Shown here one piece after another: positions 18,888-19,487 of a stretch of 44,039 bases of DNA. Position numbers and translations under genes: made by a program. Below the pieces are notes generated by a model, which ran no database searches, was not told where the DNA came from, and worked only from the letters and a program-made list of their open reading frames with translations. The stretch lies in sequence record PQ511147.1; one strand, 5' to 3'. Each line of letters opens with the position of its first letter. Position 1 is the first letter of the stretch. The DNA is from Escherichia phage NHEP3.

Positions 18888-19487
18888 ATGTCACAAGGTA
18901 CAATCACACTAACGAAAGGAAGTAAGACCGTCACGGGCGCGGGAACGGCGTTCCTTAGCGAGATCGGGAAGGTACTCGTATTCGCCCGCATCGACGGCAA
19001 CGACTACACCGGCAAAATTGCGGCATTCAACTCGAACACGGTCATTACTCTGAAAGATAACTGGGCCGGTCCGACGAAATCCGGTGCGGCATATGAGCTA
19101 ATCGAAGCACACGACCCGCGATCAAACGAATGGCCCTATTACTGGCACATGCAATTGCAGGGTGGTGGCGACGTGCAGTTGGCTTTCCGGTCGGAGGAAT
19201 TGCAATTCGGTAATGGCTACGGGCAGAACATCGCGGACGGCCCGAACGCCGAAACGAAACAGTTCCCCGTGCAATTCGTCGGGCTGACTACTGACAAGTG
19301 GTGCAACCCTAAACTGGTTTACAACTTCCTTCGCGGGCACTTCGTCAAGCCGTTTGTCGTTACCGCGCCGGATGGCGAAACAGGTTTATTCGTGGTCGAG
19401 CGTTCGAGCTTGTCGTACACGGACAACGGGCACTACACGGCAACGGTATCCGCCACCCTTAAGACTGCTATTGGATTCGTAAGATGA
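18888..19487 (+). CDS. minor tail protein (tail tip) with a tail-fiber-like N-terminal domain
   Basis: GTGGGGG Shine-Dalgarno before the ATG at 18888 (18858 is an alternative start); its N-terminal about 70 aa align with the N-terminus of the tail fiber at 26371. Confidence 0.55.
   Translation: MSQGTITLTKGSKTVTGAGTAFLSEIGKVLVFARIDGNDYTGKIAAFNSNTVITLKDNWAGPTKSGAAYELIEAHDPRSNEWPYYWHMQLQGGGDVQLAFRSEELQFGNGYGQNIADGPNAETKQFPVQFVGLTTDKWCNPKLVYNFLRGHFVKPFVVTAPDGETGLFVVERSSLSYTDNGHYTATVSATLKTAIGFVR

Follow-up and report, generated by a model that had tools for sequence, protein, structure and literature searches.

The gene at 18888-19487 of Escherichia phage NHEP3 (sequence record PQ511147.1; the whole stretch of 44,039 nucleotides analysed here is referred to as the window) occupies the position of lambda gpM, and its product starts with a segment resembling the N-terminus of the side tail fibre encoded from 26371. 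This raises the question of whether the gene encodes a fibre-type protein or a distal tail protein (Dit), and what a fibre-like segment would do at this place. The 18888 protein is an ordinary distal tail protein with an extra N-terminal beta-barrel, which is homologous to the anchor domain of the fibre. On balance, this barrel is regarded as a fibre anchor that Dit has captured and that now serves as a decoration on the outer side of the Dit ring, and not as the docking site of the fibre. The two genes comprise the following features (aa, amino acids).

18888..19487 (+): distal tail protein (lambda gpM position), 199 aa; open reading frame, phrog_9922 'minor tail protein' (E=2.6e-141)
18888..19106 (+): N-terminal domain (N-domain) of Dit, aa 1-73, a small beta-barrel; alignment with the fibre N-terminus, PyoF13 and PHROG matches
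19107..19139 (+): short linker, aa 74-84, from the N-domain to the gpM core; between the two matched regions
19140..19484 (+): gpM / Phage_min_tail core, aa 85-199
26371..28161 (+): side (lateral) tail fibre, 596 aa; open reading frame, PHROG tail-fibre families 1591 and 1980
26371..26586 (+): N-terminal anchor domain of the fibre, aa 1-72, paralogue of the Dit N-domain
26587..26775 (+): fibre segment after the anchor, aa 73-135, a putative stem; 71-97% conserved across loci
27727..28128 (+): C-terminal domain of the fibre, aa 453-586, PF25670 Phage_tail_C_2 (E=1e-58); match to 7z47_D 'Putative tail fiber' (E=1e-58)

A distal tail protein with a fibre-anchor homologue at its N-terminus

Residues 86-187 of the 18888 protein were matched by Pfam PF05939 Phage_min_tail with 44.3 bits (gathering cut-off 39; E=2.5e-11), and the protein was also matched by phrog_14 'minor tail protein' (E=6e-16). 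Its core matched T1 gp37, the distal tail protein of phage T1 (E=4e-12; T1 tail structure: PMC11945409). PDB chain 23gd_B, 'Distal tail protein gp20', is 199 aa long and ~96% identical to the 18888 protein (E=2e-131). The same entry holds near-identical homologues of gpL ('Hub protein gp21') and gpJ ('J-like tail tip protein gp24'), and two Dit chains, as expected of a C3 asymmetric unit. No publication for 23gd was found in the literature search; a paper on Avs-1 that describes a 'gp20 distal tail protein' was considered as its source and rejected, as it deals with a different phage.

An AlphaFold2 model of the 18888 protein was built with a 63-row alignment. Predicted local distance difference test (pLDDT) scores were 91-98 for residues 1-70 and 78-93 for residues 121-190, and residues 75-120 were of low confidence. 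The modelled core superposed on the distal tail proteins of T1 and lambda and formed the tail-tube-like beta-sandwich. From the Pfam, T1, 23gd and AlphaFold2 evidence, the protein was defined as a gpM core with a ~73-residue N-terminal add-on. By its 96% identity to the 23gd chain, it is predicted to assemble as a hexameric ring, placed after the last tube ring and before the trimeric hub. The initial annotation had suggested, from the N-terminal module in common with the tail fibre, that the gene may encode a short fibre or tip-attachment protein and not a canonical gpM. This is refuted by the gpM core: residues 86-187 are gpM by Pfam, T1 Dit match and fold, and nothing but gpM core follows residue 85 (no repeats, coiled coil, shaft, fibre-tip or other C-terminal binding domain). 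Moreover, no other gpM candidate was present among the open reading frames of the window between the tape measure protein (TMP) and gpL, and the near-identical protein of 23gd was modelled as a distal tail protein.

The fibre open reading frame starts with ATG 26371, and its product begins MAAGTLSVTNNSK. Both starts are preceded by Shine-Dalgarno-like runs (GGGGG before 18888, GAGGA before 26371). BLASTP of the 18888 protein against the fibre gave 26/71 identities (37%) and 56% positives (E=9e-8), in a co-linear alignment from residue 1 to ~70 of both proteins. The Smith-Waterman score was 100, versus 25.9 +/- 4.8 (maximum 53; z=15.6) in 5000 composition-preserving shuffles of one partner, of which none reached it; z was 15.0 when both partners were shuffled. 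The fibre N-terminus was matched by phrog_9922, the Dhillonvirus distal-tail-protein family (E=1.6e-7), and fibre residues 1-72 matched the solved distal tail protein 23gd_B (E=2.3e-4). Reciprocally, the N-terminus of the 18888 protein matched four tail-fibre PHROGs (17834, 28473, 1980 and 2712; E=2.9e-18 to 2.4e-12). The initial annotation had described the ~70-aa N-termini as closely aligning and had proposed pairwise alignment against shuffled sequences as a check; this observation was confirmed. G, T, S, A and V are abundant in both segments, but a chance or compositional similarity of two Gly/Thr-rich N-termini can practically be dismissed given the shuffles, the co-linearity from residue 1 and the reciprocal profile matches in PHROGs and PDB. 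A third copy was not found by a two-copy profile in the six-frame translation of the window.

In some records Dit is annotated from further upstream, within 18831-18887, with GTG or another codon and overlapping the end of TMP (218 aa in JLBYU60, 212 aa in Henu5_1). ATG 18888 was taken as the start because it fits the 199-aa deposited chain, the ribosome-binding site and the alignment of the fibre N-termini from residue 1.

The anchor family and the origin of the Dit copy

The two-copy profile was searched against 1.84 billion representative proteins and yielded 4098 clusters at E<=1e-3 and 514 at E<=1e-10. Most of the best 150 clusters have the domain at residues 1-75 of 250-800-aa proteins, whose continuations and PHROG/Pfam matches are of the tail-fibre type. 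Fusion to gpM was seen in only one of these 150, the Dhillonvirus cluster. A model of the domain is absent from Pfam and NCBIfam. In a word-indexed protein search, the 81-aa N-domain alone gave no match and the whole 18888 protein only 10 relatives.

Matches outside Dhillonvirus in the phage collection came from Erwinia, Salmonella, Cronobacter and Pseudomonas phages and were mostly annotated as tail fibre, tail protein or hypothetical. The closest (49% identical) was a 430-aa 'tail protein' of Erwinia phage Midgardsormr38, encoded downstream of gpJ and cor in a phage whose own gpM is plain (116 aa). A small Midgardsormr38 open reading frame between TMP and gpM was considered as a free-standing precursor of the fusion and rejected as unrelated. 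The Dit N-domain also matched residues 5-81 of the F2-pyocin side fibre PyoF13 (25ve_A; E=1.1e-4). The fibre copy of the window had no direct PyoF13 match and joins the anchor family through the profile search and common PHROGs. An anchor at the N-terminus of a fibre, with stem and shaft behind it, was found in the 26371 fibre and not in the 18888 protein.

The Dit N-domain shares 47-49% identity with fibre anchors from other phages, but only 37% with the anchor of its own fibre. A recent intragenomic duplication was therefore rejected, and the Dit N-domain is regarded as an old or horizontally acquired fibre anchor. In the proposed course of events, a barrel of ~73 residues would have been captured from a side-fibre N-terminus and placed in front of the gpM core, joined to it by a ~10-residue linker.

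About two dozen of the best 150 matches were proteins of 1000-2900 aa with up to 13 tandem copies of the domain. Tandem-array proteins (P0011, P0012, P0014, P0040 and others) contain 4 to 13 copies in 600-2900 aa. PKD domains were present in 4/4 of those scanned, and sub-threshold Pfam matches to Phage_attach (lambda gpFII) and to an EF-P KOW-like domain were obtained. Such arrays put the fibre-anchor fold to quite another use.

Side-fibre attachment with and without the Dit domain

The window belongs to Dhillonvirus, a genus of HK578/JL1-like siphophages of E. coli. Its tail region (16000-28200) has 93-94% nucleotide identity to ~150 phage records, nearly all of them Dhillonvirus Escherichia phages (e.g. 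YD-2008.s, SSL-2009a, B2 and Henu5_1). The gene order is lambda-like (TMP, 18888 gene, gpL, gpK, gpI, gpJ, two small proteins, Cor-like lipoprotein, side fibre), with the same TMP / 18888 gene / gpL synteny in all related loci. Besides Dit and fibre, the tail module comprises the following.

16211-18853 (+): TMP, so annotated in YD-2008.s and Henu5_1; directly upstream of the 18888 gene
19484..20272 (+): gpL-like hub protein, 262 aa; PF05100, 23gd_C 'Hub protein gp21'
20275-21015: gpK; JAB and NlpC/P60
21006-21623: gpI
21620..25039 (+): gpJ-like central fibre / tip protein, 1139 aa; 23gd_D, 25vf_A, T1 and lambda matches
24152..24589 (+): putative alpha-helical gpJ shaft, ~aa 845-990; alignment with the F2-pyocin central fibre
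25077-25379 and 25382-26053 (+): two small proteins after gpJ
26072-26353 (-): Cor-like lipoprotein; lipoprotein signal MKTLIMICAVLLAGC

In three F-pyocin structures, the central fibre carries the side fibres on its coiled-coil shaft, to which they are clamped by the anchor domain (PMC13455828, PMC12874032, bioRxiv 10.64898/2026.02.24.707460). Attachment is through residues 2-76, with basic residues facing an acidic coiled-coil patch (bioRxiv 10.64898/2026.02.24.707460, PMC12874032), and the family self-associates into pseudo-sixfold rings in these particles (PMC13455828, PMC12874032). The gpJ protein of the window matched 23gd_D 'J-like tail tip protein gp24' (E=0) and the F2-pyocin central fibre 25vf_A (E=7e-224), and also T1 9l9p_S and lambda gpJ. 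Its residues 893-1104 were aligned with residues 977-1188 of the F2-pyocin central fibre, i.e. with the distal part of the shaft and the following beta-prism. Since both partners are homologous to their F-pyocin counterparts, the gpJ shaft (~aa 845-990) is the likeliest candidate docking site of the side-fibre anchors. The fibre's own anchor and stem would thus clamp fibre trimers onto the gpJ-like coiled-coil shaft; by analogy with PyoF13, fibre aa 73-135 would be a helical stem. The F7 pyocin shaft undergoes a switch from coiled-coil to beta fold on firing (PMC12874032), and a like fold switch may, by the same analogy, take place in the central fibres of Dhillonvirus and T1-like phages.

Alternatively, the Dit N-domains might be landing pads for the fibre, with the fibre anchors packing laterally on their paralogues. 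In a mixed collar of this kind, six Dit and six fibre copies would add up to 12, as in the Ur-lambda Stf and T5 p132 collars. The two domains are true paralogues and the family forms rings by self-association in F-pyocins (PMC13455828). Furthermore, Dit or its surroundings are the attachment site of side fibres in lambda, T5, monocin and Sf11 (PMC12617516, PMC13455828, PMC12724387), and the gpM N-terminus lies at the Ur-lambda collar contact. Nevertheless, such homotypic docking, the main rival reading, is considered unlikely: in all three F-pyocin structures the domain binds the central fibre and not Dit, and plain Dits stand beside the anchor in outgroup phages, in Midgardsormr38 and in F-pyocins. 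It is further opposed by close relatives of the window.

Two metagenomic Dhillonvirus contigs (L003 and L004) represent nearly the same phage as the window, with 98% identity in TMP, 99% in gpK, 99-100% in gpI, 96% in gpJ and 94-99% in the major tail protein. The fibre anchor (94%) and the fibre stem (91-97%) are likewise kept, but Dit has 123 aa, is without the N-domain and is only 66% identical to that of the window in its core. Their gpL has 415 aa (L003:10362-11609, L004:6133-7380), with an insertion of ~155 aa after residue 55; the first third of gpL was swapped along with the Dit gene. The insertion is ~41% identical to a domain of 'minor tail proteins' of Klebsiella phages (~48 kb genomes), and a weak match was obtained to part of 'Megatron' of R4C (8gtc_M; E=1.7e-4). 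The variant cassette would set a different beta-rich module in gpL, just below the position of the Dit N-domain. In a more distant clade (L005/L022; TMP ~60%), a 123-aa Dit is accompanied by a normal gpL, and the fibre is still led by the anchor. The Dit/gpL cassette thus occurs in at least three interchangeable states within a single genus (Dit with barrel, plain Dit with gpL insertion, and neither), the rest of the tail being near-identical in the first two. These states provide a compact natural experiment on the role of such decorations.

In L007, the Dit N-domain has diverged to 71% identity, whereas the fibre anchor (95%), the Dit core (96%) and gpL (99%) have not. The fibre anchor was 90-99% identical in most Dhillonvirus loci examined and 81% in L006. 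Pairwise distances of the Dit N-domain and the fibre anchor were correlated with rho 0.30, no higher than the background with unrelated tail genes (major tail protein, gpK and gpI). A chain matching the fibre anchor was absent from the solved tip 23gd. The variant Dits, L007, the background-level co-variation and the fibre-free 23gd argue that the fibre anchor works without the Dit domain; as judged from these comparisons, the fibre does not need the Dit N-domain. Of the shared attachment module suggested by the initial annotation, the homology of N-domain and fibre anchor has therefore stood, whereas common attachment is contradicted by relatives in which the fibre anchor is found without the Dit copy.

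Somewhat less probable still than lateral docking is that the Dit copy mimics the fibre anchor, either as the second docking site of a mixed collar or as a competitor that sets the number or position of fibres. This would be a fourth way of mounting siphophage side fibres, with the fibre anchor duplicated onto Dit. No evidence was found that the Dit barrel holds fibres, unlike the Ur-lambda and T5 collars.

The N-domain could also be an evolutionary remnant, fused by illegitimate recombination with a fibre gene and carried along as a functionless passenger. It is dispensable in close relatives and evolves ~4x faster than the core, with a ratio of nonsynonymous to synonymous substitution rates (dN/dS) of 0.14 versus 0.03 (41/78 versus 18/119 variable columns). 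With a mean p-distance of 0.113, it is the most variable segment of the tail tip (neighbours 0.02-0.05, distal gpJ 0.08-0.09); dN/dS of fibre residues 73-106 was 0.03. However, a dN/dS of 0.14 at a dS of ~0.54 is clear purifying selection. The domain was intact, free of frameshifts and truncations, in 20/20 N-domain-bearing loci analysed, it occurs at >=70% identity in ~157 phage records, and its fold was predicted with very high confidence. A mere remnant is therefore improbable.

Regarding the neighbouring genes, the minus-strand open reading frame 26072-26353 is annotated as Cor superinfection-exclusion protein in YD-2008.s, and cor likewise lies between the tip genes and the fibre gene in Midgardsormr38. 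The products of 25077-25379 (100 aa; phrog_557 'outer membrane protein') and 25382-26053 (223 aa; phrog_425) were compared (window 25077-26053 (+)) with L003:16429-17618 (-), L006 and L007. The pair is present only in some Dhillonviruses (96-99% identity in five loci, 71%/53% in three); loci without it have a minus-strand DUF6453 protein (321 aa) and a small phage lipoprotein instead. The 100-aa and 223-aa proteins have been proposed as unrecognised receptor-binding proteins at the gpJ tip (PMC12309495), and their swap may be linked to receptor specificity. The best full-length match to 16000-28200 was a record with the name 'Campylobacter phage A144', and a further Dhillonvirus record bears that of 'Acinetobacter phage NJ01'. 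Their host labels look doubtful, since both sequences are those of ordinary Dhillonviruses.

Proposed role and comparison with known tail tips

In Ur-lambda, the Stf collar contacts K2 and W6 of gpM from the outside (PMC12617516). From these contacts and the fusion at the gpM N-terminus, the six Dit N-domains are expected on the outer surface at the tube-tip junction, where they would form a built-in partial collar. The captured anchor domain would there act as accessory surface decoration of an 'evolved Dit', providing weak reversible adhesion to cell-surface glycans and/or bracing of the junction, roles that have been proposed for peripheral domains in other Dits. A decorating or adhesive role is favoured by the peripheral position, the interchangeable modules, the fast evolution under constraint and the dispensability in relatives.

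Several points weigh against this overall reading, with the fibre docked on gpJ and the Dit copy as decoration. The N-domain family is not known to bind glycans, and paralogy with the fibre anchor is equally expected of a homotypic docking site. Co-variation did not single out any partner of the fibre anchor, neither the Dit N-domain nor the gpJ shaft, all correlations being at a background of 0.1-0.4. The absence of a fibre chain from 23gd could reflect lost or unresolved fibres, and the 155-aa insertion of gpL could be an alternative docking platform and not an alternative decoration. Finally, the F-pyocin attachment residues (F2 953-956; F7 acidic patch 950-961) lie upstream of the confident gpJ alignment.

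Dits with extra peripheral domains, the fibre anchor domain and a solved near-identical Dit are already known. The literature search found no paper that describes a Dit with a sequence homologue of the side-fibre anchor as its additional domain, and none on the polymorphism of the Dit/gpL cassette. Overall interest is modest unless the mixed-collar reading is true. As a caution for annotation, a 'tail fibre' match at the N-terminus is not enough to call a protein a fibre. Of use for engineering of Dhillonvirus or T1-like phages, a domain fused to the N-terminus of Dit and presented in six copies at the tail tip appears to be tolerated.

Compared with lambda gpM (109 aa) and T1 gp37 (117 aa), which consist of the tube-like core only, the 18888 protein has an additional 73-aa N-terminal beta-barrel. 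F-pyocin Dits (113 aa) are likewise without the N-domain, unlike the 18888 protein. The anchor ('OB') domain of PyoF13/PA0643/PA0646 (25ve, 25vj) has the same size and the same position at residue 1 as the Dit N-domain, with detectable homology. The fibre anchor of the window has an F-pyocin-like setting: it opens a side fibre whose gene lies downstream of that for a homologous central fibre. In pyocins the anchor is followed by a stem helix and both clamp the shaft, whereas the Dit copy leads through a short linker into the gpM core and would thus be unable to reach the shaft. Particle-binding domains of tailspikes and depolymerases (phi297 gp61 4ru5, Klebsiella P560 7vul, Phi92 gp150 6e0v) resemble the N-domain at the fold level only.

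The collars of Ur-lambda Stf, T5 p132 and DT57C LtfC also place small beta-domains round Dit, and the fusion point corresponds to the Ur-lambda contact. Those collars are, however, made of 12 Ig-like copies from the fibre or a separate protein, whereas here six unrelated barrels are linked to Dit. Peripheral domains are further known from the galectin-type Dits of SPP1 and TP901-1, from 'evolved' Dits with carbohydrate-binding insertions and from the adaptor helix of Sf11 gp17. The pattern seen for the Dit N-domain is that of accessory adhesion or decoration domains, such as those of T5 pb9 and, in Gram-positive phages, of 'evolved' Dits.
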